A DNA stretch of 64,000 nt from NCBI GenBank assembly GCA_050015495.1, contig JBEKBH010000006.1, forward strand, positions 67,661 to 131,660, read 5' to 3'. The position numbers and the translations under genes are program-made. Origin of the DNA: Verrucomicrobiia bacterium. Lineage in GTDB: Bacteria > Verrucomicrobiota > Verrucomicrobiia > Palsa-1439. The notes beneath the pieces are model-generated. The model did not search any database. It was not told the origin of the DNA and saw only the letters and a list, made by a program, of their open reading frames with translations. Of this stretch, positions 3,829-41,785 are shown one piece after another (the stretch's first letter is position 1; each line of letters starts with the position of its first letter).

Positions 3829-4740
3829 ATGTTGGTTAGCGCAATAATTCCGACCTACAACCGTGCTCGGACCATCGAGCGCGCGGTGAACAGCGTGCTA
3901 GGCCAGTCCTGGCAACCAATCGAAGTCATTGTTGTTGATGATGGTTCGACAGATCAGACGACGGACATCCTGGCACGATACGGCGACCGGATCCGGCTGA
4001 TTCGCCAGAAAAACCAAGGGCCAAGTGCCGCTAGAAATGCCGGTATCAAGGCTGCCCGGGGGGAGATCGTCACCTTTCTGGACTCGGACGATTCGTGGTT
4101 GCCCGACAAGGTCGAACGACAAGCGAAACTGCTCCAAGCCACCGAATCGCAGGGAGTCGCCTGCTGCGTGTGCAACGCGCGGATGGAGTTCCTGTCCGGG
4201 ACGAGGTATTCGTTCGCGGCGGCATCGCTCCATCCCCGGCACAAGGAAGGGATCTGGAGCAACCCGGCGGAGATACTCGTCACCCGGTTTTTATTTTTCA
4301 ATCAAGTGGCCGCCATCTGGCGCACCGCGTTGGAGGAGACGGGCTATTTCCGTCCGGGAATCATGGAAGATTATGACCTGGCGTTGCGACTATCCTTGGT
4401 CGGGCCCTGGGCGTTCATCGCCGATCCGTTGGTGGTGTGGTATGAGCAGAAGGGGGATAATCTTTCTCGCACCCATAGTCCGCGTGAGATCACGGAACGG
4501 GCCTTGAAGATTCTCCTCGACATACGCAGTTCATCCCGTTGGGGCACGCTCCTGCCTGACCGCTTGCTGCGGCGGCGAATTCGGGAACTGCAACGACAGG
4601 TTTTTGCCCAGCGCCTGTCTGTGGAGCATGGTTGGGCAGCCAAGGGGTTGGCGAAATGTCTAGTCGCGTATTTACGAATTCAGCGGCGTGTCCAATTGGA
4701 TTTGCGAGTGTATCCGTCAATGGTCACGCAAAAGCCGTAA
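3829..4740 (+). CDS. Glycosyltransferase family 2
   Basis: VSAIIPTYNRARTIERAVNSV...VIVVDDGSTD...LDSDD (DXD) motifs. Alternative upstream start at 3778. Confidence 0.85.
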   Translation: MLVSAIIPTYNRARTIERAVNSVLGQSWQPIEVIVVDDGSTDQTTDILARYGDRIRLIRQKNQGPSAARNAGIKAARGEIVTFLDSDDSWLPDKVERQAKLLQATESQGVACCVCNARMEFLSGTRYSFAAASLHPRHKEGIWSNPAEILVTRFLFFNQVAAIWRTALEETGYFRPGIMEDYDLALRLSLVGPWAFIADPLVVWYEQKGDNLSRTHSPREITERALKILLDIRSSSRWGTLLPDRLLRRRIRELQRQVFAQRLSVEHGWAAKGLAKCLVAYLRIQRRVQLDLRVYPSMVTQKP

Positions 4741-4904
4741 GCTGTGTCTGGTGTCAACCGGAAGAACCAATGGTTGCAGGCGACGAGACAATCGCAGGGT
4801 CGGTTCATAAATCTGCGATGACCATGGCCGAATGGCCGACAAACTTGAGAGGAACGACGAACAGTGCTGCGACACAACATTCGTATGTGTCTGGAAATGG
4901 GCGG

Positions 4905-4920
4905 TGGCACCGATACTGCT
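4905..4920 (+). promoter_or_regulatory. Candidate sigma-54 (-24/-12) promoter TGGCAC-N5-CTGCT for the downstream beta-helix/PKD protein gene
   Basis: Exact GG-N10-GC spacing (GG 4906-4907, GC 4918-4919). ATG at 4936 lies about 16 nt downstream of the -12 element. PrsR (sigma-54 activator) is encoded in the same locus. Confidence 0.5.
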
Positions 4921-4935
4921 GTCTTGGGCAGCCAC

Positions 4936-7900
4936 ATGAGTATAGTTGTACCGACACTGGAAAGCGTGTCGCTCCGGGATCGCTCTCCTTTCATCCGCCA
5001 TCCGGTCACTGTCTGCCTCGCTGTTCTCCTCATGGCATGTGTGAATGCCTTCGGAACCAGTTACTATGTGGACTATTCAAGCGGTGCCGACGGCAACTCC
5101 GGCACAAGCACGTCGTCGCCCTGGCAGCATTGTCCCGGCGATCCGGCGGCGACGGGCGCGGCGCTGGCGCACGTGCCGCAACCGGGCGACATTTTCAATT
5201 TCAGGGCCGGAACGACGTACACGCTGACGGGCGACGGCAGTACGCTGTACCAGACCGGCATCGGCCTGAACTGGTCGGGATCGAGCGCCGCGCCGATCAC
5301 CTATGCGTGCAGCGCGAACTGGAGCAACGGCAGCAACACCAACCGGGTGATTTTCACGGACGGTTATACCTCCAAGTACATCGCGGCGTTCTACGCGCCC
5401 GGCGCCGTGGCGAACATCGTGATCAGCAACCTGGAGATCGGGCCGATCGGTGGCAGCGCGACCTTGCCGGCGGATCCGGGCACCGGCGTCCCCTCCAAGA
5501 ACGGGTACGGCGTGTTTTGCGGCGGGACATTCCAGAATATCACCGTGGCGAGTTGTTACTTCCACAATCTCGGGTACGCGTTCAACACCATCCCGATGGA
5601 CGGGAACTCGCTGGGCCAGAGCGACGGGCGGCTCTCGAGCGCGGGCATCGAGCTCTACGGCAGCGGCAGCGGCGTGACCATCACCAACTGCGCGTTCACC
5701 CACATGCACACCGCGATTGACCTCGCGTGGCAGGCCGACACGTCGGACATCACGATCACGGCGAGCCGCTTCTACGATTTCATCGTCTGGGGCATCGACG
5801 TGGCCGGCATCGCTGGAAACCTGGACTACTTGACGATCAGCGGGAACAATTTTAGCGGCATGGGCTGGGCGTACTCGCCGCCGAACTGGACCGGCTACAA
5901 CAACATCCCGGCGACGTGTTCGACGTGTTGGGCGGGCAGTCCGCACCAGGACCCGATCTTCTTTCGGACCAGCGACCTGAGCGTCACCTGCGGCCTGCAC
6001 AACAACATTTACGGGAACGAGTTTCACACCACGCATCCGAACGAAGTGTTCACGGCGGACCTGTATCTGGAATATGCCCCGAGCGTGAACATCTACAACA
6101 ACCTGTTCGACAATCCGAATGCGGGCGTCTCGACGACGGGTCAGAATATTTACACCAACTCGACGGGCATCATCACCACGAACAGTTGGAGCGGCGGCGG
6201 CGCGCCGGCCGTGGAGATCTCCTACGAACTCAACCAGGGCGGCACAATCCGCATTCTCAACAACACCGCGATCGTCAACCTCCCCGGCTCGGCCCAGAGC
6301 GCGGCGCTATTGTGGGGCGCGTGCGGCTGTCTCACCCCGCCTCTGACATGGCCGAACAACGCCTACCTGCAGGTCGAGAACAACTTGGGTTACTCGTGGG
6401 CGACAACGGGCCAGCAAGGTTCGCTGCTCATACTCGGCGTGGTAACGAATCAATACCCCGTTGCGCAATGGACAGTGGATTACAACGACTGGCATTCGCC
6501 CCACGCCAGCGACCCCTACTTCTGGTGGAACAACCAGCCCGGGTTCAACCTCGACGGCGGCCTGGCCGTCGAGCAGAGCGTCGGCTTCGACGCCCACGGC
6601 ATCACCAACGACCCCGCCTTCGTGAGCTTGGCGTACGGCGCGACCACCAACAGCCCGGGGAATAGTTACCAATTGCAGTCCAGCTCGCCCGCGATTGGGG
6701 CGGGAGTCAATCTGAGCAGTCTTGGCTTGCCGGGCCTGAACACCGACAAAGACGGCAATCCCCGTCCGGCTTCGGGTCCGTGGGATATTGGAACTTACGA
6801 GTACAACACGAACAGCGTGGCGCCGTCCCCGCCTGTGGCCTCGTTCAGCGCGACGCCGACCAGCGGAACGGCACCCCTGACAGTGACGTTTGCCGATACA
6901 TCCAGCGGTACTATCACCGATCGCTTCTGGCAGTTTGGGGACGGTAATGTGACCAACACGATGGCGACGACGGTGATCTACCAATATACCGGAGCCGGCA
7001 CCGACACAGTCCAATTGATCGTGAGCGGCCCGGGCGGCTCCAGTACGAACGTGCAGGCCAATCTGATTACGGTCGGTTCAACTGGCAACACGAACAGCGT
7101 TCCGCCACCGGTGGCCGCGTTCACTGTCGCGCCGACCAATGGCACGGCTCCGTTGACGGTAACGTTCACGGACACATCGACCGGCTCGATCACGAACCGT
7201 CTGTGGCATTTTGGGGACGGGACTTTGACCAACACATTGGAAACCACAATGGTGCACCAGTATACGGCAGCGGGCACCAATACCGTGTATTTGCGTGTGT
7301 ATGGCTCTGGCGGTGAGAGCCTCGATCTAAAGCCCAATCTCGTTACGGTCAGTTCAGCCGGCAACACGAACAGCGTTCCGCCACCGGTGGCCGTGTTCAG
7401 TGCCGCGCCGACCAGCGGTACGGCTCCGTTGACGGTGACGTTCACCGATACATCCACCGGTGCCATCACCGATCGCTACTGGCAATTTGGCGACGGTAAT
7501 GTACTGGACACGACAGCGACAACGGTGATCTACCAATACACCGGGCCCGGTACGGACACGGTTCAGTTGGTGGTAAGCGGCCCGGGCGGATCCAGTACGA
7601 ACGTGCAGGCCAATCTGATTACGGTCGGTTCAGCTGGCAACACGAACAGCGTTCCGCCGCCGGTGGCCGCGTTCACCGCCGCGCCGACCCGTGGTACGGT
7701 CCCATTGATGGTGACGTTCACGGACACGTCGACCGGCTCGATCACGAACCGTCTGTGGCTTTTTGGGGATGGGACATCGGCCAATACGTTGAGCACCACG
7801 ACGGTACACCAATACACGACGCCGGGTACCGATACCGTGCAACTGGTTGTTACCGGTCCGGGAGGCGCGGGTGTCAGCACGCAGGGCAACCTGATCATCG

Positions 7901-7989
7901 TCAGCCCAAGTTCACAATCAGGCGGCGGTACCAACGGCGTCCCGCAGGTTGGCGGTCATTACCACTGGCGGTTCCTGACCGCTCATTAG
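4936..7989 (+). CDS. Large secreted protein. N-terminal signal peptide, right-handed beta-helix (pectate-lyase-like) region, and four C-terminal PKD-like domains.
   Basis: Signal peptide HPVTVCLAVLLMACVNAFG. NxT/GxT-rich beta-helix-like region. Four ~90-aa units with APLTVTFTDTSTG...FGDG... PKD signature. Maximal ORF begins at 4864. The 4936 start was chosen because of the sigma-54 promoter. Confidence 0.75.
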   Translation: MSIVVPTLESVSLRDRSPFIRHPVTVCLAVLLMACVNAFGTSYYVDYSSGADGNSGTSTSSPWQHCPGDPAATGAALAHVPQPGDIFNFRAGTTYTLTGDGSTLYQTGIGLNWSGSSAAPITYACSANWSNGSNTNRVIFTDGYTSKYIAAFYAPGAVANIVISNLEIGPIGGSATLPADPGTGVPSKNGYGVFCGGTFQNITVASCYFHNLGYAFNTIPMDGNSLGQSDGRLSSAGIELYGSGSGVTITNCAFTHMHTAIDLAWQADTSDITITASRFYDFIVWGIDVAGIAGNLDYLTISGNNFSGMGWAYSPPNWTGYNNIPATCSTCWAGSPHQDPIFFRTSDLSVTCGLHNNIYGNEFHTTHPNEVFTADLYLEYAPSVNIYNNLFDNPNAGVSTTGQNIYTNSTGIITTNSWSGGGAPAVEISYELNQGGTIRILNNTAIVNLPGSAQSAALLWGACGCLTPPLTWPNNAYLQVENNLGYSWATTGQQGSLLILGVVTNQYPVAQWTVDYNDWHSPHASDPYFWWNNQPGFNLDGGLAVEQSVGFDAHGITNDPAFVSLAYGATTNSPGNSYQLQSSSPAIGAGVNLSSLGLPGLNTDKDGNPRPASGPWDIGTYEYNTNSVAPSPPVASFSATPTSGTAPLTVTFADTSSGTITDRFWQFGDGNVTNTMATTVIYQYTGAGTDTVQLIVSGPGGSSTNVQANLITVGSTGNTNSVPPPVAAFTVAPTNGTAPLTVTFTDTSTGSITNRLWHFGDGTLTNTLETTMVHQYTAAGTNTVYLRVYGSGGESLDLKPNLVTVSSAGNTNSVPPPVAVFSAAPTSGTAPLTVTFTDTSTGAITDRYWQFGDGNVLDTTATTVIYQYTGPGTDTVQLVVSGPGGSSTNVQANLITVGSAGNTNSVPPPVAAFTAAPTRGTVPLMVTFTDTSTGSITNRLWLFGDGTSANTLSTTTVHQYTTPGTDTVQLVVTGPGGAGVSTQGNLIIVSPSSQSGGGTNGVPQVGGHYHWRFLTAH
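6806..7905. repeat. Tandem intragenic repeats: four PKD-domain units (~270-280 bp each) in ABAB order. The A/A' and B/B' copies are near-identical at DNA level.
   Basis: Motif ggcaacacgaacagcgttccgcc[ag]ccggtggccg recurs at 7086, 7366 and 7636. Protein units alternate between type A (..IYQYTG.GTDTVQL.VSGPGGSSTNVQANLITVGS) and type B (..VHQYT..GT.TV.L.V.G.GG). Confidence 0.7.
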
Positions 7990-8258
7990 CGCCCCTGACA
8001 GAACGCCGGGATCGTGGAAGGCCCGCTCCCGCATGGTCGAGAATATCCGGGGAATATCACGGTGGCGCAGAAACGCTACCCACCCAGAGAAGCCTTCGTA
8101 GGCGCGCGTAGTCTGTTCCAGAAACGGTCTCGGCAAGCAAATAATCTACATCGGTCTCGCCCACGGTGTTATCACAGCACCGCGCGGCGGCGGTGGGAGG
8201 GTGATTTGGAGATTCCCGTTGACAACGACGCGATGCTGAACCGGTTGATGAGGTAGCA

Positions 8259-8864
8259 ATGGGTATCGGAACGATAGAATGGCTTGACCACGCCCGGTCG
8301 CGGGTTGTGACGAGATTGTACACGCTGCTGTTCGCGAGCCAATTCAAGGAATTCGGCGCGGGATCCAGGATTGCGCCGCCGTTTCGCTATTACGGCTTGA
8401 ACCAGATCAGTGTGGGGGAAAAGGTAATCATCAACCGCGACTGTTGGATTCAGGTATTGGGTGGCCGTCAGGACGACACATCCGCGAAGATTGTCATCCG
8501 CGCGCACGCCGGGATTGGAATGGGCGCCAGCATTTCCGCCGCACAGCAGATTACCATTGGCGAGTACGTCCTCTTGGCCCGCAACGTGTACATCTCCGAC
8601 CACGCCCACGCGTACGAGAATCTGGACGTGCCGATCATGCGTCAGGGGATTGACGGTATCGCCCCCGTTTCCATCGGCCGCAATACGTGGCTGGGGGAGA
8701 ATGCGGTCGTCCTGCCCGGTGTCACCATCGGCGAGCATTGCGTCATTGGTGCCAACGCGGTGGTAAATACGTCCATCCCGGATTTTTCCGTCGCGGTCGG
8801 CGCGCCGGCGCGCGTGGTGAAGCAGTTCAATAAGAACAGCGGACGATGGGAACGCGTCGGTTGA
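8259..8864 (+). CDS. Hexapeptide-repeat (LbH) sugar O-acetyltransferase
   Basis: Left-handed beta-helix repeats IGENAVVLPGVTIGEHCVIGANAVV. Confidence 0.75.
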   Translation: MGIGTIEWLDHARSRVVTRLYTLLFASQFKEFGAGSRIAPPFRYYGLNQISVGEKVIINRDCWIQVLGGRQDDTSAKIVIRAHAGIGMGASISAAQQITIGEYVLLARNVYISDHAHAYENLDVPIMRQGIDGIAPVSIGRNTWLGENAVVLPGVTIGEHCVIGANAVVNTSIPDFSVAVGAPARVVKQFNKNSGRWERVG

Positions 8865-8938
8865 CAGCTCGGGGAGCGCCCCGAAATCGAGTGTGCGATC
8901 CGGATGTCTCCTGACAGGCACGACAGGGCGGAAGGCCA

Positions 8939-10390
8939 TTGAGCAAGACACTGAAATCGAGAGCGCTCGGCGCTGTGATGTGGAGCGCGGCCGAGCAATT
9001 CAGTTCGCAGGGCGTGCGGTTTGTCATTGGGATTTTTCTGGCCCGGCTTCTCCTTCCGGAACAGTTTGGTTTGCTGGGAATGATCGCCGTCTTCCTGGGA
9101 GTCGCCCAGGTGTTTGCGAGTTGCGGTTTTGGGCAGGCCCTGATCCAACGACAGGACGCCACCCAATTGGATGAAAGTTCCATCTTCTACGTAAACGTAT
9201 TCCTGGGATTGATCGCCGCACTCGGTCTGTTTCTGGCCGCGCCATGGGTCGCCGCGCTCTACAAGCAGCCTCCGCTGCTATCGCTGACCCGGATCATGGC
9301 GGCGGACGTCTTGATCAACGCGTTCGGGGTTGTGCAAACGGCGCTGCTCACGAAGAAAATGGACTTCAAAACCCAGCTCAAGATCAGCATAACGGCAAAT
9401 TCGGTGTCGGGAGTCGCGGCGGTGTTCCTGGCGATGCGCGGGATGGGTGTGATGAGCCTCGCGGCACAAATCTTAATTGCCGACACGTTGCGGACGGTGA
9501 TGTTGTGGACGTCGCATGTATGGCGGCCGTCGCCGGTGTTCAGCCTCGCTTCGGTTCGCCGGTTGTTTTCCTTCGGATCGCGCATGTTCGCCTCGGGCAT
9601 GCTGTACGTGGTGTTTCAAAATCTCTATCCCTTTACCATCGGCAAGCTGTTTGCTGCGGCGTCCCTCGGTTACTACACTCGGGCCAGTTCGACACAGGAA
9701 ATGGTGTCGTCCAACCTGGTCAACGTGGTGGGGCGGGTTTCGTTTCCGTTGTTTTCGGCGCTGCAACACGACGTGGCAAGCATGAAACGGGCGGTACGGA
9801 AGGCGTTGATGTCCATCGCGTTTGTCAGTTTTCCCGCCCTCATGGGTCTGGGGTGTACCGCGGTGCCGCTGGTGCGGGTGCTGATCACCGACAGGTGGCT
9901 GCCGTCGGCAGGGCTGATTCCCATCTTTTGCGTGGCGGGTGCGGTGACCGTGCTGGATTCCATCCATTTGAACGCGTTGATGGCCTTGGGAAGGTCTGAC
10001 CTGTTTTTCCGTTTGGAGATGATCAAGAAGGGCCTGATCATCTTGGCAATTATCACGACGTATCACTACGGCATTCTCGGACTGGTCTGGGGGCAGGCTT
10101 GCGTGGCTGTGCTCTGCTATTTCATCAACGCGTTCTACTCCGTCCGGCTGTTGTCATACTCGTGGCGAGAGCAATTCGTGGACCTGCTTCCCTATCTGAG
10201 CATCTCCGGGTTGATGGGACTGATCGTGGTGGCGACCAACGTGCTGCTCGGCATAAAGAGTCCCGCGGTATTGTTGTGCGTCCAAATTGCGCTGGGTGGC
10301 GTCGCGTACGCCACCGGGTCCGTCTTGTTGCGTGTCTCGGCGCTGGTCGACACGTGGAAGTTGGTCCAGGAGCGAATGGTTCTTTCGTGA
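8939..10390 (+). CDS. wzx: Wzx-type polysaccharide flippase (MOP superfamily)
   Basis: 12-14 TM helices. N-terminal ...LGAVMWSAAEQFSSQGVRFVIGIFLARLL typical of polysaccharide biosynthesis flippases. Apparent TTG start at 8939 with ggaagg RBS. First ATG is at 8978. Confidence 0.75.
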   Translation: MSKTLKSRALGAVMWSAAEQFSSQGVRFVIGIFLARLLLPEQFGLLGMIAVFLGVAQVFASCGFGQALIQRQDATQLDESSIFYVNVFLGLIAALGLFLAAPWVAALYKQPPLLSLTRIMAADVLINAFGVVQTALLTKKMDFKTQLKISITANSVSGVAAVFLAMRGMGVMSLAAQILIADTLRTVMLWTSHVWRPSPVFSLASVRRLFSFGSRMFASGMLYVVFQNLYPFTIGKLFAAASLGYYTRASSTQEMVSSNLVNVVGRVSFPLFSALQHDVASMKRAVRKALMSIAFVSFPALMGLGCTAVPLVRVLITDRWLPSAGLIPIFCVAGAVTVLDSIHLNALMALGRSDLFFRLEMIKKGLIILAIITTYHYGILGLVWGQACVAVLCYFINAFYSVRLLSYSWREQFVDLLPYLSISGLMGLIVVATNVLLGIKSPAVLLCVQIALGGVAYATGSVLLRVSALVDTWKLVQERMVLS

Positions 10391-11293: not shown

Positions 11294-12400
11294 ATGCGCA
11301 GTCAGGTGGAAATTGATCGGGTGACGGCGGCGGAATGGGCCGAACTGTTGGAATTGTTTGTCGACGCCAATGTGTACCAGACCTGGAGTTTCGCCGCGAT
11401 TCGCTGGGGTGAGGGCAATCTGAGCCATGTCGTGCTCAAGCAGGGCGGCGATGTGGTCGGGATTGCGCAGGTCCGGATCGCTTGTGTGCCGGTGGTGGGC
11501 TGTGGAATCGCCTATCTCCGCTGGGGGCCGTTGTGCCACCGGCGGGGACGGGAACTTGATCCCGAAGTTCTGCGAGACATGGGACAGGCGCTCCAGACGG
11601 AATACGTCGAGCGTCGGAGGTTGTTTCTGCGGGTTCTGCCGAATGCATTCATCGGATCGCCCCGTGCCGAATTGTTCCAGACCGAATTCTCCCAGTTCAA
11701 GGCAGAACCCGCCAACAAGGTCAACACGTACCACACCATCGTCGTCGACCTGTCGGGCACGCTCGACGAGTTGCGCAAGCGGCTCGATCAGAAGTGGAGA
11801 AACCAATTGAACCGGGCCGAGAAAAACGGCCTGCAGATCGCCGAGGGGACCGGTATCGAGGAATACCGGGTATTCGCGGCAGTCTACAAGGAAATGTGGG
11901 AACGCAAACGGTTTGATACGTCGGTGGACGTGGACGAGTTTGGCTGCATTCAGGAAGGACTGCCCGAAAGCCAGCGGATGAGGGTGTTGATCTGTCGTCA
12001 GGGCGACACCCCTGTCGCCGGGATTGTTTGTTCCGCCATGGGCGACACCGGAATCTACTTGCTCGGGGCGACCAGCGATGACGGCTTGCAGTCCAAAGGC
12101 GCTTACCTTCTTCAATGGACCATGATCCGCTGGCTCAAAGAACACGGATTTCGCTATTACGATCTGGGGGGAATCGATTCCGCGTCCAATCCAGGTGTCT
12201 ACCATTTCAAGAGCGGCCTTTCGGGAAGCGACGTTCGCCACATGGCCCCATTTGCGGCGTGCAACAGCCTCCTGGGATCCGCGTTCGTGAAGGCGGTCGA
12301 CCTCGTGCGCCAGCGGCGGGGCGGAGATCGTCATGTGGCCCAAAGTCGACCCCAACGCCCGAAGTCGGAACCCCTGCCCGGAACAGAACCTGTCCGCTAG
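11294..12400 (+). CDS. FemAB-related protein (Acetyltransf_6/FemAB fold). Resembles the PEP-CTERM-system-associated FemAB family.
   Basis: C-terminal GIYLLGATSDD...YLLQWTMIRWLKEHGFRYYDLGGI pattern of the FemAB/GNAT-like family. Position right after the deacetylase in the EPS locus. Confidence 0.65.
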   Translation: MRSQVEIDRVTAAEWAELLELFVDANVYQTWSFAAIRWGEGNLSHVVLKQGGDVVGIAQVRIACVPVVGCGIAYLRWGPLCHRRGRELDPEVLRDMGQALQTEYVERRRLFLRVLPNAFIGSPRAELFQTEFSQFKAEPANKVNTYHTIVVDLSGTLDELRKRLDQKWRNQLNRAEKNGLQIAEGTGIEEYRVFAAVYKEMWERKRFDTSVDVDEFGCIQEGLPESQRMRVLICRQGDTPVAGIVCSAMGDTGIYLLGATSDDGLQSKGAYLLQWTMIRWLKEHGFRYYDLGGIDSASNPGVYHFKSGLSGSDVRHMAPFAACNSLLGSAFVKAVDLVRQRRGGDRHVAQSRPQRPKSEPLPGTEPVR

Positions 12401-30004: not shown

Positions 30005-33000
30005 ATGCGACAGTTTCTGTTTAGAATTCTTGCGTTGGCGGCGTTGTTTCTAACCGTCATAGCCGGAAGCGGTTGCACACAAGCAGCCAGACGAGCCCGG
30101 CACTTGGCCCGTGCCAATCAGTACTTCGATTCCGGCGAGCTGGACAAGGCCGAGATCGAGTACTTGATCGTCCTCAAAACGGATCGGACGAATCCCCGGG
30201 CCATCGGTCGACTCGGCATCATTTATTACGAACAGGGGCGATATGGGCGCGCGATTCCGTTCCTGATCAAGGGGAAGGAGCTCGCGCCGGAAGACCTGGA
30301 CCTGCGACGGAGGCTGGCCGCCGTCTATTTGTCAGCGGGCAAGACAAAGGATGCAAGGGATGAGGCCATCTTCGTTCTCGATCGAAATCCGCGCGACGAT
30401 GAGGCGCCGCTGTTATTGGCCGAGGCATCGGCAGCCACAAACGCCGTGGCCGAGGCACAGGCGAGATTGAAGGCGGCGGTGCAGAAGGCGGGTGAGACCG
30501 CGGCATTGGATGTGGCCCTGGCGCATCTGGAACAGAACCGCGGAGATTTTCAGGCAGCAGCAGCCGATCTGGAACGGGCCAAGGCTCTCGACCCAAAATC
30601 GAGTTCGGTGTTTTGGGCGTACGGGAACCTGTATTTCGCGCAAAACGACCAGAAGCAAGCCGGGGAGGCATTCCAGACGGCGGCCAAACTGTCTCCTCCC
30701 CGATCTCCGAGGCGATTGCGATATGCCGAGTACAAAATCCGGGCCGGGGATCTGGCAGACGGCAAACAGCTCTTGCAGGACATCACCCGGAAGACTCCGG
30801 ACTATTTGCCCGCATGGAGGTGGCTGGCGGAGATTGCCCTGGCCGAAACGAACTATGACCAGAGCGCGGACCTTGTCGGCAAAATGCTCGCGCGGGATTC
30901 GCTCAACTACGACGCGCTGCTGTTGAATGGCCGGATCTATCTGGCGAAAGGGAACGTGGACAGGGCGATCGGAGAGTTCAAGAAGGCGGTGACGGCATAT
31001 CCACAGGCGCCCGAGACGCATTATCAACTTGCCGTCAGCTATCTGGTGAAAAATGAAGTCGGTCAGGCGGTGATCAGCTTGAATCAGGCGTTGAGCGTGG
31101 CGCCGAATTTTGCGGAGGCCACGGTATTGCTGGCGGGAATCAAAATGAGAACCGGCGAAGTGGGTGCGGCCATCGCTTCGCTGAAGCCGCTGGTGGAGAA
31201 GCGACCGCACTTTGTTCAGGCCCAGCTTCTTCTGGCCGACGGGTATCGCGCCCAGGGCGATTTCGAGTCCGCGATCGAGATCTACCGCGCCATGGAGAAG
31301 TTGGCTCCAAAGAATCCCGATGCGCCGCTCCTCATGGGGATGACATTTCTCCAGGAGGAAAAACGGGATGAAGCCCGCGCGGCATTCGGCAAGGCCGTGG
31401 AATTATCTCCCGATTACCTGGCCGGGGTGGAGCAGTTGGTGGACATGGATATCGCGGACAAACAGTATGAAACGGCCCTGCAGCGGGTCCAGCCGCTCCT
31501 CGATCGAAACCCCAAGTCGGCAGAAGCGCGGCTGGTCCAGGCGAAGATTTTCCTGGCGCAACAAGACGCGAAAGGGGCGGAAGCCGCGCTGGTGAAGGCC
31601 ATCGAGTTGAAGCCGGAATCCCGGGCCGCCCATCTCATGCTCGCGCGGTTGTACGTCGACACTCACCAGCAACAGAAGGCGTTGGATGATCTCCGGCCGT
31701 TCGTCGAGAAAAATCCAAAGGACGCCGGGGCGTGGCTGTTCATCGGCATGATCCAGGAACAGCAGAAGGATTACGATGCCGTCCGCGACACCTACGAGAA
31801 ATTGCTGGCCGCCAATCCGCAGTACACGCCGGCCATGAACAATCTGGCGTGGTTGTATGCGGAAGATCTTGGACAGACGGACAAGGCATATGAGATCGCC
31901 AGCAAGGCTAGGGAATTGCAGCCATACGACCCGTTTGCCGCCGATACGCTGGGTTGGATCCTCTATCGGATGAAGCAGTATCCGAAGGCCCTGAGTTTGT
32001 TGCAAGAAAGCGCCGGCAAGATCGGCAAGCAGGCCGACGTCCAGGTTCATTTGGGGCTGACGTATTACATGTTGGACGAGGAAGAACCGGCCCGAACGGC
32101 GCTGCAACGCGCCAAGGAATTAAAGAAGGATGTTACCGGCCACGAGGAAGCTGATCAATGCCTGGCCATTCTAGCCATCGATCCCGCGTCGGCAGGGCCC
32201 GAAGCACGAACCATGTTGGACAAACGACTGGCGGCGACAGCGGATGACCCGGTGGCCCGAGCGCGGCTGGCGGCCATTGACGAACGCGAAGGGAAATTTG
32301 ACAAGGCGACCGAGGGGTATCAGACGATACTGACCTCCAATCCTGACGACGTCAGGGCGTTGGTCAGTCTCGCCCGGCTCTACTCATCGCATGGGAATGA
32401 CCCGCACAAGGCCATCGAATTTGCCAAGAACGCGTACAAACTTGCGCCGAACGATCCTGCCATCCCCCTGATCCTTGGTCGGCTGGCGTTTCAAACCGGT
32501 GATTACAAATGGGCGGCGAGCCTGCTCCAACAGGCGTCGAGCCAACAACCGCAGAATCCCGAGGTGCTCTTTGATTTTGCGCTGGCCTCCTACAGCGTTG
32601 GCCAGGTGTCTGATGCCGCAGCCAATGCGAAAAACGCCTTGCAAGCCGGGGCTGGGTTCTCGCGCGCGGATGCCGCGACGCGGTTTCTCGACATGATCGC
32701 ACTGGCGGGTGACCCGGAGCGGGCGGTGACGTCGTCGTCACGCGTTCAGGAGATATTGAAATCGCAACCAGATTATGTGCCCGCGCTCATGGCGATGGGA
32801 GCGATTGAAGACCAAAAAGCGGATCTTCGCGCGGCGGAGCAGGTCTATGAAAAAGCGCTGTCGCTGTATCCTGACTTTGGACCAGCGAAGAGGCGACTGG
32901 CCATCCTGTACGCGGCGGACCAACCCGCTGACAATCAGCGGGCGCTACAACTCGCCATGCAGGCCCGAGAGGCATATCCAGTCGATCCAGAAGTTGCGAA

Positions 33001-33235
33001 AGCTTTTGGCATCGAGGCGTATCGGCAAGGGGACTACGCGAGGGCAGCCGGACTCTTGAAGGAGAGCGCCAACAGTCTGACGGCGGATGCGACTTTGATG
33101 TACTACCTGGGGATGGCGCAATATCGGAATAACGACCCGGCAGCCTGCAAGCTCTCGCTACGACGAGCTCTCGAATTGAATCTGAACGGTGAATTGAGTT
33201 CGGCGGCGAAACAAACGCTGGTGGGATTGAAGTGA
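30005..33235 (+). CDS. prsT: PEP-CTERM system TPR-repeat lipoprotein PrsT
   Basis: Lipoprotein signal LFLTVIAGSGC. About 1070 aa of TPR repeats throughout. Immediately upstream of prsK/prsR. Confidence 0.8.
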   Translation: MRQFLFRILALAALFLTVIAGSGCTQAARRARHLARANQYFDSGELDKAEIEYLIVLKTDRTNPRAIGRLGIIYYEQGRYGRAIPFLIKGKELAPEDLDLRRRLAAVYLSAGKTKDARDEAIFVLDRNPRDDEAPLLLAEASAATNAVAEAQARLKAAVQKAGETAALDVALAHLEQNRGDFQAAAADLERAKALDPKSSSVFWAYGNLYFAQNDQKQAGEAFQTAAKLSPPRSPRRLRYAEYKIRAGDLADGKQLLQDITRKTPDYLPAWRWLAEIALAETNYDQSADLVGKMLARDSLNYDALLLNGRIYLAKGNVDRAIGEFKKAVTAYPQAPETHYQLAVSYLVKNEVGQAVISLNQALSVAPNFAEATVLLAGIKMRTGEVGAAIASLKPLVEKRPHFVQAQLLLADGYRAQGDFESAIEIYRAMEKLAPKNPDAPLLMGMTFLQEEKRDEARAAFGKAVELSPDYLAGVEQLVDMDIADKQYETALQRVQPLLDRNPKSAEARLVQAKIFLAQQDAKGAEAALVKAIELKPESRAAHLMLARLYVDTHQQQKALDDLRPFVEKNPKDAGAWLFIGMIQEQQKDYDAVRDTYEKLLAANPQYTPAMNNLAWLYAEDLGQTDKAYEIASKARELQPYDPFAADTLGWILYRMKQYPKALSLLQESAGKIGKQADVQVHLGLTYYMLDEEEPARTALQRAKELKKDVTGHEEADQCLAILAIDPASAGPEARTMLDKRLAATADDPVARARLAAIDEREGKFDKATEGYQTILTSNPDDVRALVSLARLYSSHGNDPHKAIEFAKNAYKLAPNDPAIPLILGRLAFQTGDYKWAASLLQQASSQQPQNPEVLFDFALASYSVGQVSDAAANAKNALQAGAGFSRADAATRFLDMIALAGDPERAVTSSSRVQEILKSQPDYVPALMAMGAIEDQKADLRAAEQVYEKALSLYPDFGPAKRRLAILYAADQPADNQRALQLAMQAREAYPVDPEVAKAFGIEAYRQGDYARAAGLLKESANSLTADATLMYYLGMAQYRNNDPAACKLSLRRALELNLNGELSSAAKQTLVGLK

Positions 33236-33479
33236 CGAGCAAAACAACTGGGCTTTGCGAGTGGGACAGATCGCAAGTTGCGGGTCAAACGTGACCCGGT
33301 TGTGATATCTGGAATATGGCCGCAATTCAGTTTCGGGAGACTCCGGCGGGCCAGTGCTTGCCGCACCGTCATTCCCCCTGCAAGGGAGAGTGTAGTAAGC
33401 TATCTGCGGCCCGACTGACCGTGAACCGAACAGAAAGGCGCGGCGGGACACGATTCCGACCGTGAACCAGCGATAGACC

Positions 33480-35594
33480 ATGGGCTTGGCCATCACACTG
33501 GCCCTCACCAGCGCAATTCTTGCGTTTGGGATGGGAGTGACTGTTGCCGTCCGGGAGCGAATCTCCCTGGCATCCTGGACGTTCTTCGTCGGGATGACCG
33601 TATTGGCCGCCGAAGGCTTGCTGGCCGGACTGGCCGCGCAGGCGACCGTGCCGGACGAAATGGTCTACTGGGAGCAATGGAAACTTGTCGCAACATCCGT
33701 TCTTCCAGGCATCTGGCTGTTGTTCAGTGTGAGCTACTCGCGGGGTGATGTTCGAGAGACCCTGGTGAAATGGTGGTGGCTGATCGTCGGAGCGTTTGTC
33801 CTGCCGATCGGCCTTGCGGTGTTGTTTCGCGGGAACCTGATTACGGTCGCACGTCAGGCGTCCCCGCCGGACCATTGGATGCTCCATCTGGGCTGGCCGG
33901 GCGTGGCGTTGAACCTTCTGTTCTTGCTGGGCTGCATCCTGGTCCTGGCGAACATCGAGCGCACCCTCCGCGCGTCCGTGGGAACGATGCGGTGGCGCAT
34001 CAAGTTCATGATCGTCGGCTTGGGGATCCTGTTCGCCGTTCGGGCGTACACGAGCAGCCAGAATCTGTTGTTTGGGATGGTGGATCTTTCCTGGGGAAGC
34101 GTGGACTCGGGAGCGCTCCTGCTGGCGGCTCTGCTGATCTTGCGTTCGCTGTTGCGGGCCGGACATTTCGACGTCAGCGTCTATCCGTCACAGTCGGTCG
34201 TGTACAATTCACTGACCGTGCTGTTGGCGGGGATCTACCTGTTTCTGGTCGGGGTGTTCGCCAGGGTGGTCACGTTTCTTGGCGGCGACGCGACGTTTAC
34301 CGTCAAGGCGTTCGTGATCCTGCTCGCGCTGGTCTTGCTGACGGTCCTGTTGTTGTCCGAGCGGGTGCGGCTGCTTACCAAGCAGTTTGTCAGCCGTCAC
34401 CTTCAACGGCCGTTGCATGACTATCGTCTGGTCTGGCGAAAGTTCACCGAGGGCACCGCCTCGCGCGTCGACCAGACGGAACTGTGCCGGGCGACGGTCA
34501 AACTCATCGCGGAAATCTTCCAGGCGCTCTCCGTGACCATCTGGCTCGTCGACGACACCAAAGAGCGCCTGACGTTTGCGGCCTCCACGTCGTTGTCGGA
34601 TACCGCGGGCACGAATCTCAGCCCGCACGGCGCGGAGGTGGTGGAAGTCGTTCGTGGCTTGCTCGAGCAGACGATGCCGGTGGACATCGACACATCGAAG
34701 GAACGGTGGGCCGCGCTGCTGAGGCAGTGGCATCCAGACGAATTTCGCAAGGGAGGGAACCGCATTGCCGTGCCGATGATCACCAACGGAGAACTGCTCG
34801 GGCTGATCACGCTGGGTGATCGCGTTGGCGGGGTTCCCTTCTCGCAACAGGATTTTGATTTGCTCAAGTGCATGGGCGACCAGGCAGCCGCCAGCCTGCG
34901 CAATGTCGAGTTGTCACAGAAGCTTCTCCAGGCAAGGGAACTCGAAGCGTTCCAGACCATGTCGGTATTTTTCATCCACGACCTGAAGAACACCGCCTCG
35001 ACGCTCAACCTGATGCTGCGCAACCTGCCCGTCCACTTTGACAAGCCCGCCTTTCGTGAAGACACGTTGCGCGGGATTTCCAAGAGCGTGGATCACATCA
35101 ATCAACTGATCGAGCGGTTGAGCCTGTTGCGTCACGAATTGGAAATGCAGCCGACGGAAACGGACCTGAACGAGGTGGTCTCCCAGGCCGTCGGCGGCTG
35201 GGCCAAAACCGGCGACGTTGATCTGGTACAAGACCTGCATCCGCTGCCAAGGTTGTCTCTGGATCGGGAGCAAATACTCAAAGTGGTGACAAATCTGGTA
35301 CTGAACGCGACGCAAGCGGTTTCCGGCAAGGGCCGGGTGGGCATCGAGACGACCCACCGAAACGGCTGGGTTGTGCTCGCGGTGACGGATAACGGCTGTG
35401 GCATGAGCGCGGAGTTCCGGAATCGATCACTGTTTCGCCCGTTCCAGACCACCAAGAAACAGGGCTTGGGCATCGGCGTGTTCCAGAGCAAGATGATCGT
35501 GGAGGCGCACGGAGGAAGGATCGAGGTGGAAAGTGAACTGGGCAAGGGTACGACGTTTCGTGTATTGTTGCCCGTCCGAAGGCCAGGTGAATGA
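33480..35594 (+). CDS. prsK: PEP-CTERM system sensor histidine kinase PrsK
   Basis: About 8 N-terminal TM helices, GAF-like region, HisKA (FIHDLKNTAST) and HATPase_c (DNGCGM...GLGIGVF) motifs. Confidence 0.85.
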   Translation: MGLAITLALTSAILAFGMGVTVAVRERISLASWTFFVGMTVLAAEGLLAGLAAQATVPDEMVYWEQWKLVATSVLPGIWLLFSVSYSRGDVRETLVKWWWLIVGAFVLPIGLAVLFRGNLITVARQASPPDHWMLHLGWPGVALNLLFLLGCILVLANIERTLRASVGTMRWRIKFMIVGLGILFAVRAYTSSQNLLFGMVDLSWGSVDSGALLLAALLILRSLLRAGHFDVSVYPSQSVVYNSLTVLLAGIYLFLVGVFARVVTFLGGDATFTVKAFVILLALVLLTVLLLSERVRLLTKQFVSRHLQRPLHDYRLVWRKFTEGTASRVDQTELCRATVKLIAEIFQALSVTIWLVDDTKERLTFAASTSLSDTAGTNLSPHGAEVVEVVRGLLEQTMPVDIDTSKERWAALLRQWHPDEFRKGGNRIAVPMITNGELLGLITLGDRVGGVPFSQQDFDLLKCMGDQAAASLRNVELSQKLLQARELEAFQTMSVFFIHDLKNTASTLNLMLRNLPVHFDKPAFREDTLRGISKSVDHINQLIERLSLLRHELEMQPTETDLNEVVSQAVGGWAKTGDVDLVQDLHPLPRLSLDREQILKVVTNLVLNATQAVSGKGRVGIETTHRNGWVVLAVTDNGCGMSAEFRNRSLFRPFQTTKKQGLGIGVFQSKMIVEAHGGRIEVESELGKGTTFRVLLPVRRPGE

Positions 35595-36958
35595 ATCCAA
35601 AACTACTGATTGTTGACGACGACGAAGAAATCCGCACCCAGATGAAGTGGGCGCTGGCGCAGGATTACGAGGTGTTGCTGGCGGAGGACCGGGCCAGCGC
35701 GGTCGAATGTTTCAAGTTCGATCGACCATCGGTGGTGTTGATGGATCTGGGCCTGCCGCCCCAACCGAACAGTCCTGACGAGGGGTTGGCGGCGATGGCG
35801 GAGTTGGTCGCGCTGGATCGGTTGGTCAAGGTCGTGGTCATCACCGGACAGGAAGAGAAAGAGGTGGCGCTGAATGCGGTGGGGGCCGGGGCCTACGATT
35901 TTCTCTGCAAGCCGGTGGACGCGGAGGAACTGAAGCTTCTGCTGAAGCGTTGTTTCCACGTCGCGCGGCTGGAGCGGGAGTACCGCGAGATGCAGCAACA
36001 ACTTCAGGGGGATGCTTTCGAGAGCATGCTGGGCACGAGCCCCTCGATGCAGACCGCGTTCGCCTCGATTCGCAAGGTGGCCGTGACGGAAGCCCCTGTC
36101 CTGATTCTGGGGGAAAGCGGAACGGGAAAAGAAATGGCCGCGATGGCGATCCACCGGCGGAGCGCGCGAAGGGACGGTCCCTTTATCGCGATCAATTGCA
36201 GCGCGATCCCGGAAACGCTCCTGGAGAGCGAACTATTCGGGCATGAAAAGGGCGCGTTTACCGGCGCGCACATGCAACGGAAGGGGCGGATCGAAAGCGC
36301 CAGCGGCGGCACGCTGTTTTTGGACGAGATTGGAGAGATCCCATTGCCGTTGCAGGTGAAGTTGCTTCGATTTTTGCAGGAACAACGCATTGAACGGGTC
36401 GGTGGCCGGCAGGAGATCCGGGTGGATGCGCGCATTACGGCCGCGACCAACTCCGATCTCAAGAAGGGGATGGCCAACGGCAGCTTTCGGGAAGACCTGT
36501 ACTATCGGTTGGCCGTGGTGCAGATGACGTTGCCGCCGCTTCGTGACCGGGAAGGGGATATTCGCCTGCTGGCGCAGGCGTTCCTGCAGCGATTTATGCG
36601 GGAGATCGGAAAACAGGGCCTGGCCTTCGATCGCGAAGCGGTGTCGGCGATGCGTGGTCACATGTGGCCGGGCAACGTGCGGGAATTGGAAAACCGCGTC
36701 AAACGAGCGGTGATTATGGCCGAGGGCAAGTGGTTGACAGTACAAGACCTCGAGCTGGCCGAATCCAAGGATTCCACACGCGCCACCACATTAAAGGAAG
36801 CCCGGGAGAACCTGGAGCGAGAGATGATTCTTCAGGGCTTGCGGAAACATTCCTGGAAGATCGCCGCGGCGGCCGCCGAACTCGATGTGAGCCGCCCCAC
36901 GTTGTACGAGCTGATGGAGAAGCTGAAGATCCAACGGCCCGCGCAGGAGCCGCAGTAA
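35591..36958 (+). CDS. prsR: PEP-CTERM system sigma-54-dependent response regulator PrsR (NtrC family)
   Basis: Receiver domain (LIVDDDEEIR..D), AAA+ sigma-54 activation domain (GESGTGKE, GAFTGA, ESELFGHEKGAFTGA) and C-terminal HTH. ATGA overlap with prsK. Confidence 0.9.
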   Translation: MNPKLLIVDDDEEIRTQMKWALAQDYEVLLAEDRASAVECFKFDRPSVVLMDLGLPPQPNSPDEGLAAMAELVALDRLVKVVVITGQEEKEVALNAVGAGAYDFLCKPVDAEELKLLLKRCFHVARLEREYREMQQQLQGDAFESMLGTSPSMQTAFASIRKVAVTEAPVLILGESGTGKEMAAMAIHRRSARRDGPFIAINCSAIPETLLESELFGHEKGAFTGAHMQRKGRIESASGGTLFLDEIGEIPLPLQVKLLRFLQEQRIERVGGRQEIRVDARITAATNSDLKKGMANGSFREDLYYRLAVVQMTLPPLRDREGDIRLLAQAFLQRFMREIGKQGLAFDREAVSAMRGHMWPGNVRELENRVKRAVIMAEGKWLTVQDLELAESKDSTRATTLKEARENLEREMILQGLRKHSWKIAAAAAELDVSRPTLYELMEKLKIQRPAQEPQ

Positions 36959-37205: not shown

Positions 37206-37238
37206 GGTTCGAGTCGGTGCGAGAATGGATTCGAACCA
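37206..37238 (-). other. tRNA 3'-end-like fragment (canonical T-arm GGTTCGAATCC plus acceptor-like 3' strand) with no matching 5' half. Possible remnant att site.
   Basis: The minus strand reads ..catGGTTCGAATCCattctcgcacc. No complementary acceptor 5' strand was found within 90 nt. Confidence 0.3.
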
Positions 37239-37263
37239 TGGTTCCGTCATCACGGGCGTGTTC

Positions 37264-37277
37264 GGTACCGAACGCGT
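37264..37277. promoter_or_regulatory. 14-bp perfect palindrome GTTCGGTACCGAAC about 115 bp upstream of the LRR gene start. Candidate dimeric regulator binding site.
   Basis: Exact reverse-complement symmetry seen in the sequence. Confidence 0.3.
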
Positions 37278-37389
37278 CCCGAAGTTCTGTAACCTTTTAG
37301 TGAAGGCGAACGTGCGCCGCCAGCGCTCGCTACCCAGTTATCCATCCACGAAGTCCAACAGCCTGCCTCGCTGCGCGGAGAACACCATC

Positions 37390-39666: not shown

Positions 39667-39706
39667 CGAGAATCCAGGCGTACTCCGTCAGCCAAATACA
39701 TACGAT

Positions 39707-39787
39707 CCGCAGTGTCCCACCCGTCATCACGGCCGGCAACCGCCGCCGTGAGACATCGGAAGCATCCCGCCTCCGGCCGCCGCTAGA
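39707..39787. repeat. Copy 2 of the ~80-bp direct repeat (see 36962..37046). It overlaps the stop codon of the minus-strand export gene.
   Basis: See copy 1. Confidence 0.7.
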
Positions 39788-40460
39788 ACCAGGAGAATTT
39801 CTCCGGCACGTACACGATGTCCGAGGGCTTCAGGTAGAAGGGCGTGCTCTGCTTGGCCTCGAGGGCCTCTTTCAGGTTCAGCGTGTAGTTCTTCGTCCCG
39901 TCCTTCTCGTTGCGGACCACTCGGACATGACCGAGGTTGGCTTTCGTGTAGTCGAAGCCGCCCGCTTCCATGATGGCTTCCAGCGCGGTGATCGGGTGGT
40001 CGGACATGATCTTGCCCGGCCGGATCACAGCCCCGGTCACGAAAACGGGAAACGAGGAAGACGTCACGGTCACCGTGACTTCCTTGGTGACCAACTGGGA
40101 CGAGTAGAGTTTGAGAATCTCTTTCTCCAAATCGGCCGGCGTCAGCCCGGCGGCGACGACTTCCCCGACCATGGACAAGACAATCTTGCCGTCTCTTCGG
40201 ATCTGCTGCGAGTCATTGAGATTCGGGGCGCCGGGAAAGGTGATCTTCAACACGTCGCCCTCGCGCAGGATGATCGCATTCGACTGTTCGGCGGCGGTAT
40301 CGACGGGAGCGTTTGTCTGGGTGGTCTGACAGCCGGCCATGGCGGTCAGGATTGCGACCACCAGGGTCGCGAGCATCGTTCGCGAACGGCCGCCAACGAA
40401 CACGCCTCTGTTGTTTGGCAAGCGGTCGAGATCAGTTCGAATCGTTGAACCCTTGGTCAT
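39783..40460 (-). CDS. Polysaccharide export protein (Wza/GumB-like periplasmic lipoprotein). Resembles the PEP-CTERM-system-associated export protein.
   Basis: Lipobox LTAMAGCQ. Poly_export-type region ILREGDVLKITF...RRDGKIVLSMVGEVVAAGLTPADLEKEI and SLBB-like C-terminus. Alternative start M29 at 40376. Confidence 0.8.
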   Translation of the reverse strand: MTKGSTIRTDLDRLPNNRGVFVGGRSRTMLATLVVAILTAMAGCQTTQTNAPVDTAAEQSNAIILREGDVLKITFPGAPNLNDSQQIRRDGKIVLSMVGEVVAAGLTPADLEKEILKLYSSQLVTKEVTVTVTSSSFPVFVTGAVIRPGKIMSDHPITALEAIMEAGGFDYTKANLGHVRVVRNEKDGTKNYTLNLKEALEAKQSTPFYLKPSDIVYVPEKFSWF

Positions 40461-40520: not shown

Positions 40521-40875
40521 CCTCTCATGCGCGGGTCATTCTATTCGTGTGCGGTCACGGCGACAACATTAAAGCCGAGCTTCCGGGCACGCATCGTAGT
40601 ACAGCGAGAGGCTGTACAGCGGGTCAACCCAAGCGTAATCCAACGGTCAGCATTGTGTAAATTGGCGTCGGAATACCTTACACTTATTGGCAAACTCTCG
40701 GAATCTCACGAACGAGAGTGTGATTTATAATAGCGTTATTACCAAGCACTTGGCGTGGTAACCCAGCCTGAATTTTGTCCTCGCGGCATGGGTAGTGCTA
40801 GGTAAGTGATTGATTCTGCAACGGGTGCCGTCGTTTGGTTCGACGGCAAGCAGAAGGGGAAGAAAGGGTATAGGG

Positions 40876-41705: not shown

Positions 41706-41785
41706 CTTGAAGCATGGGGAACGACTGCGGGCGGTCGAGCGAGCGGACAGGGCCCGGAAGCTTCTCTCGGGGTGTTTGCCGGGGA

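Follow-up and report, generated by a model that had tools for sequence, protein, structure and literature searches.

The stretch analysed here (the window) comprises 64,000 nucleotides of contig JBEKBH010000006.1 from a Verrucomicrobiia bacterium, with a G+C content of 60%; the closest relatives of its proteins are found in Verrucomicrobiia metagenome-assembled genomes (MAGs) from peat and soil metagenomes. The element in question is a short motif at position 4905, TGGCAC-N5-CTGCT, which precedes the gene of a giant secreted beta-helix/PKD protein and has the form of a -24/-12 promoter of sigma-54 (RpoN). An earlier reading made from the sequence alone (the sequence-only reading) had proposed it as a sigma-54 promoter and as a likely target of PrsR. 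The genes from 112 to 36958 are all co-oriented and separated by short gaps, and the giant gene lies in a polysaccharide cluster that also holds, 25-32 kb downstream and on the same strand, prsT, prsK and prsR (Table 1). Their three products each exceed the curated NCBIfam cut-off. PrsR consists of a receiver domain, an AAA+ domain with an intact GAFTGA motif and a Walker A motif, and a C-terminal helix-turn-helix (HTH) domain (both ESELFGHEKGAFTGA and GESGTGKE are present), which bears out the claim that the PrsR of this locus is a sigma-54-dependent activator.

Table 1. Features discussed in the text (window positions, unless a related locus is named; + and - are strands).
Feature	Position	Strand	Remarks
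Polysaccharide cluster	112-30000	single strand	GT4 and GT2 glycosyltransferases, FkbM methyltransferase, Wzx-type flippase, deacetylase, FemAB-like proteins, adenylation and FkbH domains
Cassette upstream half, presumed activator-binding region (upstream activator sequence, UAS)	4797..4904	+	invariant blocks, sharp 5' boundary; putative function
Imperfect dyad GGTC-N18-GACC	4798-4823	+	centred at ~-120; seen in L003
Invariant block TTCATAAATCTGCGATGA	4804-4821	+	within the imperfect dyad
Invariant block CGACAAACTTGAGAG	4837-4851	+	9 distinct copies
Invariant block CAGTGCTGCGACA	4862-4874	+	9 distinct copies
Invariant block CGTATGTGTCTGGAAA	4882-4897	+	9 distinct copies
Sigma-54 -24 element TGGCAC	4905..4910	+	GG at 4906-4907; invariant in 9/9 distinct related copies
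Sigma-54 -12 element CTGCT	4916..4920	+	GC at 4918-4919; TGCT invariant in 9/9 distinct copies
Melting region and very short leader	4921..4935	+	predicted transcription start site (TSS) ~4930-4931; no Shine-Dalgarno (SD) sequence
Secreted protein gene, 1017 aa	4936..7989	+	right-handed beta-helix, choice-of-anchor Q, four PKD repeats
prsT, TPR protein	30005..33235	+	TIGR02917, 392.6 bits (cut-off 312.2)
prsK, histidine kinase	33480..35594	+	TIGR02916, 399 bits (cut-off 300)
prsR, sigma-54-dependent response regulator	35591..36958	+	TIGR02915, 597.9 bits (cut-off 502.6)
Candidate PrsR box GTCGGAATACCTTACA, GTCGG-N5-YTTACR	40667-40682	+	only one in the window; 35.1 bits; from upstream-region alignment of syntenic loci
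Conserved sigma-54 site GCGGCATGGGTAGTGCT	40783-40799	+	box 100 nt upstream; GGCA and TGCT invariant, spacer variable
Box/sigma-54 regions in relatives	L018 4183-4324, 9792-9924; L019 4237-4367, 9781-9912; L020 4339-4479, 9960-10092

Around the motif the window reads GGCGG TGGCAC CGATA CTGCT GTCTTGGGCAGCCAC ATG, as the sequence-only reading had described it, with exactly 10 nt between the GG of the first element and the GC of the second. The sole departure from the classical sigma-54 consensus is C4916 (C for T), and T4920 fits the W of that consensus. The form yTGGCAy-N5-sTGCT is shared by three further sigma-54-like sites in the neighbourhood of prsKR, which are conserved among relatives of greater divergence, so that the CTGCT/GTGCT version of the -12 element recurs at the other conserved sites; judged from these alignments, yTGGCAy-N5-sTGCT is the consensus of the lineage and the 4905 site fits it. 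The motif stands on the correct strand, just upstream of the gene, in the non-coding gap (4741-4935) between the stop codon of a GT2 gene and the ATG at 4936. Scans of the region 4600-5150 found neither a sigma-70-like promoter nor a terminator, and the same region gave no Rfam family match and no stable RNA fold.

The conservation of the motif was assessed in related loci that had been retrieved without the use of the promoter sequence, either through protein homology or with leader patterns in 4936-4971. Syntenic loci were reached through protein homologs (L001-L004), GTDB genomes were found by the 21-nt leader pattern 4951-4971 (L005-L008), and metagenomes by a pattern at 4936-4964 (L014-L017); a second copy is present in L001 (~11860-12003), in front of the paralog P0023. 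Of the 11 aligned sequences, L003, L016 and L017 do not differ over the promoter region 4797-4935, which leaves 9 distinct versions of it, of which eight are orthologous and one is paralogous (over the whole alignment the distinct rows number 10). In the 9 distinct copies all ten core columns (TGGCAC and TGCT) are invariant, with a naive P of ~8e-4. In the spacer, 4911-4916, four of the six positions vary and two are invariant, and in 4921-4932, the most variable stretch of all, none of the 12 columns is invariant; in the remainder 49% of the columns are. The distance from the motif to the ATG is fixed at 15 nt among the relatives, with no indels. Fixed blocks at GG-N10-GC spacing, a variable spacer and a least-conserved stretch directly after them match what is predicted for sigma-54, since the region between -12 and +1 is sequence-nonspecific and variability of 4921-4932 is thus expected. 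The motif, whose absence from orthologous loci the sequence-only reading had named among the observations that would count against it, is kept in 9/9 distinct copies. This pattern, together with the lack of a sigma-70-like promoter in the scanned region, supports the earlier claim of a sigma-54 promoter.

The homology with the copy in front of P0023 starts abruptly at ~4795-4798, and the sequence upstream of this point is unrelated. The abrupt 5' boundary defines a portable cassette of ~140 bp (~4797-4935) that moves with the gene. The upstream half of the cassette carries several invariant blocks (Table 1). A search of the cassette for direct and inverted repeats gave only the imperfect dyad at its 5' end, and no further copies of the conserved blocks occur elsewhere in the window. 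In this region, which overlaps the stretch 4700-4860 where the sequence-only reading had suggested a search for inverted repeats as activator sites, neither a convincing dyad nor a motif shared with another promoter was found. A visual likeness between upstream regions (GGGTCGG...AAA.CTGC) was rejected by local alignment: between the upstream part of the cassette and two other sigma-54 upstream regions the best P is 0.086, at positions that do not correspond.

The start codon of the giant gene is the ATG at 4936-4938, 15 nt after the last base of the motif. It is in frame with a GTG at 4864, from which the open reading frame (ORF) spans 1041 codons and ends at 7989. The ATG is invariant among the relatives, and the GTG was rejected as a start because the frame is interrupted by a TAA in L007, L014 and L015. 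The variable sites in 4864-4935 are spread evenly over the codon positions (11, 10 and 10 at positions 1, 2 and 3, of 24 each), and the substitutions are mostly non-synonymous (TDTAVLGSH is replaced by TVGAVQSAH or TVTAAPDTH); 4864-4935 is non-coding. The preference of the sequence-only reading for 4936 over 4864 is upheld in this way on grounds independent of the promoter. Two further candidates were also rejected: the ATG at 5032 is CTG in L007 and ACG in L014, and the GTG at 4966, which would have offered a 35-nt leader, an SD-like sequence GGAAAG and a signal peptide of 30 aa, is replaced by GAG in the P0023 copy, has too short an SD-like spacing and lies inside an inverted repeat. The position of the start is thereby fixed where automatic annotation of the relatives had given three positions; P0015, the syntenic homolog in L001, is annotated from the codon equivalent to 4864.

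With C4919 taken as -12, standard sigma-54 geometry predicts a TSS at ~4930-4931; 8 of the 9 copies have a purine at 4930. Since the motif ends 15 nt before the ATG, the leader would be only ~5 nt long, a consequence that the sequence-only reading had missed. The best anti-SD pairing before ATG 4936 is -2.7 kcal/mol, compared with -6 to -12 kcal/mol for many other genes of the window, and the near-leaderless arrangement would explain the missing SD. Over its first 81 nt the predicted mRNA does not have more structure than shuffled sequences (z = +1.1), which is compatible with SD-independent initiation.

The beginning of the coding region has features of its own. A perfect inverted repeat, CGACAC-N8-GTGTCG, is located at 4952-4971, inside codons 6-12, with further occurrences of CGACA at 4837 and 4870. 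At the DNA level almost no variation is seen in the 36 nt that follow the ATG, third codon positions included, which is partly ascertainment by the search patterns. Possible roles of the repeat are those of an operator or of an mRNA element at the 5' side; the 5' end shows no significant fold.

Domain searches of the product of 4936-7989 identify Pfam PKD_4, PKD and Beta_helix and NCBIfam choice_anch_Q. The predicted signal peptide (4936-5055) comprises ~40 aa, MSIVVPTLESVSLRDRSPFIRHPVTVCLAVLLMACVNAFG, followed by TSYY, with the cleavage site placed by the A-F-G motif and by the conserved mature N-terminus [TA]SYYVDY of the paralogs. The signal peptide noted earlier is thus present, although "clean" is less apt, as it is long and its hydrophobic core begins ~23 residues after ATG 4936. 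The C-terminus, GGTNGVPQVGGHYHWRFLTAH (ending in HYHWRFLTAH), has no PEP or VPD motif, hydrophobic span or basic cluster, and neither a PEP-CTERM nor a VPDSG-CTERM tail is present in the giant protein. A conserved tail, SSQSGGGTNGVPQVGGHYHWRFLTAH, follows the last PKD repeat (7930-7989; also at the C-termini of P0003 and P0015) and contains no recognised sorting signal. Relative to the syntenic P0015 (L001 6001-8721) the giant protein is a mosaic: similarity is high over the N-terminal 70 residues and over the last ~440, which comprise the PKD repeats, the part preceding them and the tail, and the central beta-helix is only ~30% identical. The central domain is exchanged, with promoter, signal peptide and PKD frame retained. 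A shared module is formed by the cassette, the signal peptide and the first ~30 mature residues, and it is found also ahead of the second paralog on the same contig (L001).

Other members of the family give a mixed picture. The distant beta-helix paralogs P0005 and P0016 lie within operons, have no sigma-54 sites and are uninformative. The paralogs P0012 and P0009, in unrelated contexts, are preceded at 115-121 nt before the ATG by TTGGCGCAATTTGTGCT with GG-N10-GC spacing (L009 4870-4886; L010 1222-1238); the homology of these two loci to each other begins at TTGGCGCAATTTGTGCT, and their signal peptide is also long, ~40 aa. Control by sigma-54 may be common in this family.

The PEP-CTERM box provides the reference for PrsR targets. 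A computational study of 2006 defined it as a 17-nt motif 1 with TTTACA at its end, followed by a spacer and a sigma-54 motif before PEP-CTERM genes, and the phylogenetic profile of PrsK, PrsR and PrsT matches that of the box (PMC1569441). In 99 such promoters the start codon follows the sigma-54 motif at a distance of 23-221 nt (mean 71), and the box together with PrsKRT was reported only in Proteobacteria, with a spacer of 63 +/- 11 nt (PMC1569441). Dependence of PEP-CTERM genes on RpoN and PrsK-PrsR has been shown in Zoogloea and Aquincola (PMC9012009, PMC9850573); Zoogloea prsK/prsR mutants lose PEP-CTERM gene expression and keep exopolysaccharide synthesis (PMC9012009). The earlier remark that PrsR targets are poorly defined experimentally needs to be qualified in this respect.

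A promoter of this type is found elsewhere in the window. The gene 40876-41640 (+), which was found by reading the ORF translations, encodes a product ending in the VPDSG-CTERM tail VPEGTSTLMLLGAALTTLSLAGRKLHSK; in its homologs the tail either belongs to Pfam PF18205 (VPDSG-CTERM) or is plainly homologous, as in VPDASSTLALLG...RKLR. A PEP-CTERM regular expression applied to all frames of the window returned out-of-frame noise only, and a literature search on VPDSG-CTERM found nothing relevant. In the syntenic loci L018-L021 the gene order is prsT, a small VPDSG-CTERM-type gene, prsK, prsR, a wza-like gene (minus), the homolog of 40876-41640, a 227-aa gene (minus) and a DUF3466-like gene. From these syntenic loci a lineage box was derived (Table 1). 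The sigma-54 site that follows it in the window is 76 nt before the ATG of 40876-41640, where a good SD is present; in L018, L019 and L020 the box and a sigma-54 site also precede the small gene between prsT and prsK. The strict box regular expression finds 6 sites in 286 kb (0.55 expected), all at VPDSG-CTERM promoters flanking prsKR. With a position weight matrix (PWM) built from seven instances the boxes score 26-35 bits, and the next best match in the window 11.0 bits. The distance between box and sigma-54 motif in the lineage is 98-110 nt. The box is partly embedded in a GTGTAA...TTACAC inverted repeat. It is a candidate PrsR box, assigned by the profile argument of Haft (PMC1569441) and by its position beside prsKR, and its resemblance to the published text description suggests that it corresponds to motif 1 (PMC1569441). 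Judged by these motifs, a PEP-CTERM-box-like architecture occurs in this Verrucomicrobial lineage.

The giant gene does not share this architecture. In every copy of its cassette and on either strand the box PWM gives at most 1.3 bits, which is background, and the box regular expression has no match in any copy. It lacks three of the five defining features of PEP-CTERM-box promoters (the box, the sorting tail and the distance to the ATG). The cis evidence argues against PrsR acting here via its usual box.

The reading favoured here, with a probability of about 0.6, is that the motif is a functional -24/-12 promoter of sigma-54, driving the beta-helix/PKD gene from ATG 4936; the site is probably a working but ordinary sigma-54 promoter of a known class. 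An activator of the enhancer-binding-protein (EBP) class is presumed to bind within 4797-4904, ~30-135 bp upstream of the TSS, and would then remodel the closed complex of the sigma-54 holoenzyme at TGGCAC-N5-CTGCT. Transcription would start at ~4930-4931 and give an mRNA with ~5 nt before the AUG and no SD, on which translation would initiate in a leaderless-like way. The promoter may also drive the exopolysaccharide genes downstream, there being no terminator after the giant gene. A fuller picture, in which a near-leaderless sigma-54 mRNA (<=6 nt, no SD) is combined with a portable promoter-AUG-signal peptide module in front of a swappable beta-helix domain, and with an activator EBP other than PrsR, is possible and is put forward tentatively. 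No description of sigma-54-driven leaderless expression was found in the literature.

Several observations weigh against a promoter function, and most of them would also favour the unlikely alternative that the motif is not a promoter. Transcription of the gene would then come from a promoter that was not recognised, or continue from the glycosyltransferase operon upstream (read-through), and the cassette would be kept for protein sites or a 5'-UTR function, with TGGCAC...TGCT owing its invariance to chance or to its being part of such a site. By score alone the motif does not exceed what chance would give in 64 kb. TGGCACN5YTGCW is matched exactly in the window at 4905 and nowhere else (0.18 expected), yet 17 of 100 shuffled windows contain at least one such match; allowing one mismatch raises the number to 6, where 4.5 are expected. 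A generic sigma-54 PWM (a rough one, with frequencies after the Barrios consensus) gives 14.5 bits, approximately the median best score of shuffled windows. A lineage PWM, trained on the other conserved sigma-54 sites with the 4905 site left out, gives 13.6 bits, inside the shuffle range of 12.2-20.8. The PWM scan that had been recommended, here run on the window, accordingly ranks the site as the best non-training match with the lineage PWM and leaves its scores within chance. For this reason the score was not used as evidence for the promoter, and it is the position (intergenic, on the correct strand, gene-proximal) and the conservation that lift the motif above chance. The footprint, in turn, is suggestive rather than decisive, because the copies are close kin (mean identity per column 86-88%) and invariance extends to about half of the cassette columns in any case. 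Read-through from the GT2 gene is conceivable, as no terminator was found, and the co-oriented genes with short gaps are in keeping with it. The ~5-nt leader without SD is unusual for sigma-54 and is the main internal argument against function: such a leader is atypical of published sigma-54 promoters (PMC1569441), and the 15 nt between motif and ATG are fewer than at the other sigma-54 sites of the lineage (~76, ~115-121 and ~220 nt). No activator-binding dyad recognisable at another promoter as well was found in the cassette, and among those ORFs of the window that were examined there is no rpoN. On the other side, invariant blocks at GG-N10-GC, a variable spacer and the most variable stretch of the cassette alongside reproduce the sigma-54 geometry; the cassette moves with the gene into a different upstream context (P0023), as expected of the gene's own promoter; a long read-through leader would provide no ribosome-binding site either, given the lack of an SD before ATG 4936; and there is no Rfam match or stable RNA fold to speak for a 5'-UTR element.

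That the promoter is a direct PrsR target, bound within 4700-4860 and co-activated with the PEP-CTERM-type genes, is quite unlikely, and the earlier designation "likely PrsR target" does not stand. The presence of PrsK, PrsR and PrsT within the same cluster, the intact GAFTGA and HTH of PrsR, and the identity of the -24/-12 hexamers with a promoter of the PrsK/PrsR system in Aquincola (PMC9850573) speak for it. A GTCGG occurs at 4799-4803, 105 nt before the motif, about one helical turn closer than in true boxes (114-125 nt), but it is unconserved (GATCGA, GGTCAG, GGTCGA and GGCCGG in relatives) and no TTTACA follows. PrsR could also bind a different site. The box marks all six VPDSG-CTERM sigma-54 promoters (in the window and L018-L020) and nothing else in 286 kb, its scores of 26-35 bits contrast with the background level in the cassette, and the cassette has no significant similarity to the upstream regions of other sigma-54 sites. 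PrsR control is unsupported with the box and the sorting tail absent and the distance to the ATG aberrant, 15 nt being below the published minimum of 23 (PMC1569441), and the retention of exopolysaccharide synthesis in Zoogloea prsK/prsR mutants (PMC9012009) points the same way. A coding explanation, in which the motif lies inside the reading frame from GTG 4864 and its conservation is that of the amino acids GGTDTAV, would draw on the frame being open in the window and on the annotation of P0015, and is already refuted by the stop codons, the even codon-position variation and the mostly non-synonymous changes described above.

If the sigma-54 reading is right, a concrete promoter is available for a conserved secreted beta-helix/PKD protein in an exopolysaccharide cluster of uncultured peat and soil Verrucomicrobia. 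The locus would then have two sets of sigma-54 promoters, one with the candidate PrsR box before VPDSG-CTERM genes and the other, that of the giant gene, without it. This narrows the likely PrsR targets and is a caution against attributing all sigma-54 sites near prsR to PrsR. The general understanding of sigma-54 promoters is unchanged. The only unusual features are the predicted near-leaderless transcript and the modular conservation of promoter and signal peptide before a swappable beta-helix domain; should the predicted TSS be correct, the gene would exemplify sigma-54-dependent near-leaderless expression, which is a minor though genuine peculiarity.

Generic enhancer-dependent sigma-54 promoters such as glnAp2 and nifH have the consensus TGGCAC-N5-TTGCW. 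The 4905 site shares with them the GG-N10-GC spacing, a conserved region 30-135 bp upstream that possibly holds activator sites and the lack of a sigma-70 promoter; it differs in its -12 element, CTGCT (the lineage form) instead of TTGCA, in having no recognised dyad or integration host factor (IHF) site, and in its extremely short leader. Leaderless and short-leader mRNAs are established in Actinobacteria, Deinococcus and archaea, and known leaderless genes typically have housekeeping-type -10 promoters. The giant gene resembles them in a predicted TSS within ~5 nt of the AUG, the lack of an SD and an unstructured 5' end, and differs in its sigma-54-type promoter, the TSS being only a predicted one.

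Compared with PEP-CTERM-box promoters (PMC1569441), the giant gene is similar in having a sigma-54 motif in a large non-coding gap near an exopolysaccharide cluster, with PrsK, PrsR and PrsT encoded and a secreted product, and dissimilar in lacking motif 1 and a PEP-CTERM-type tail and in a motif 15 nt rather than 23-221 nt before the start. The genuine box-type promoter of the window (40667-40799) itself departs from the Proteobacterial spacing of 63 +/- 11 nt (PMC1569441), with 98-110 nt in the lineage. In Aquincola tertiaricarbonis RN12 the pepA promoter is RpoN1-dependent, with a mapped TSS and the elements TGGCAC and CTGCTT (PMC9850573). Its TGGCAC and CTGCT(T) hexamers are identical to those at 4905; unlike the giant gene, pepA encodes a PEP-CTERM protein and has a predicted upstream enhancer (PMC9850573), and the phyla differ.

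Further sigma-54-like sites occur near prsKR. The site CTGGTACGTTAGCTGCT at 42689-42705 (-) is conserved in L018-L020, even in the diverged L019; ~220 nt downstream of it comes the gene of a secreted 227-aa protein, 41786-42469 (-), with a good SD (AAAGGAG). No PrsR box was found at this promoter. In L018-L021 a divergent sigma-54-like site, ATGGCACAAGTCTGGCT, precedes a DUF3466-like gene of 800-890 aa; at 42890-42906 (+) the window has a degraded copy of it, ATGGCGCAACTCTGGCT, the DUF3466-like gene is missing, and the next gene is that of an M50 peptidase (43054-44001, -). A conserved block, GTCCGCAC..GAGAGAATC...AAAGAGAAA, is situated between CTGGTACGTTAGCTGCT and the divergent site. The top match of the generic sigma-54 PWM in the window, CTGGTACAAGACCTGCA at 35223-35239 (+), is inside prsK, ~350 nt before the start of prsR; it is conserved in L018-L021, which is uninformative because it lies in coding sequence.

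The small VPDSG-CTERM gene that L018-L021 have between prsT and prsK is missing from the window, where a 245-bp gap (33235-33480) is left in this position; compared with these loci the window has an additional gene for an 813-aa leucine-rich-repeat adhesin-like protein (37225-39666) between prsR and the wza-like gene. Three long ORFs, 39624-40448 (+), 41714-42397 (+) and 8172-8951 (-), are probably spurious, and the real genes are those of the other strand: the wza-like gene at 39783-40460 (-), which Pfam confirms; the gene of the secreted 227-aa protein, 41786-42469 (-), syntenic in L018-L021; and, by synteny with L003, probably a 201-aa hexapeptide transferase gene at 8259-8864 (+).

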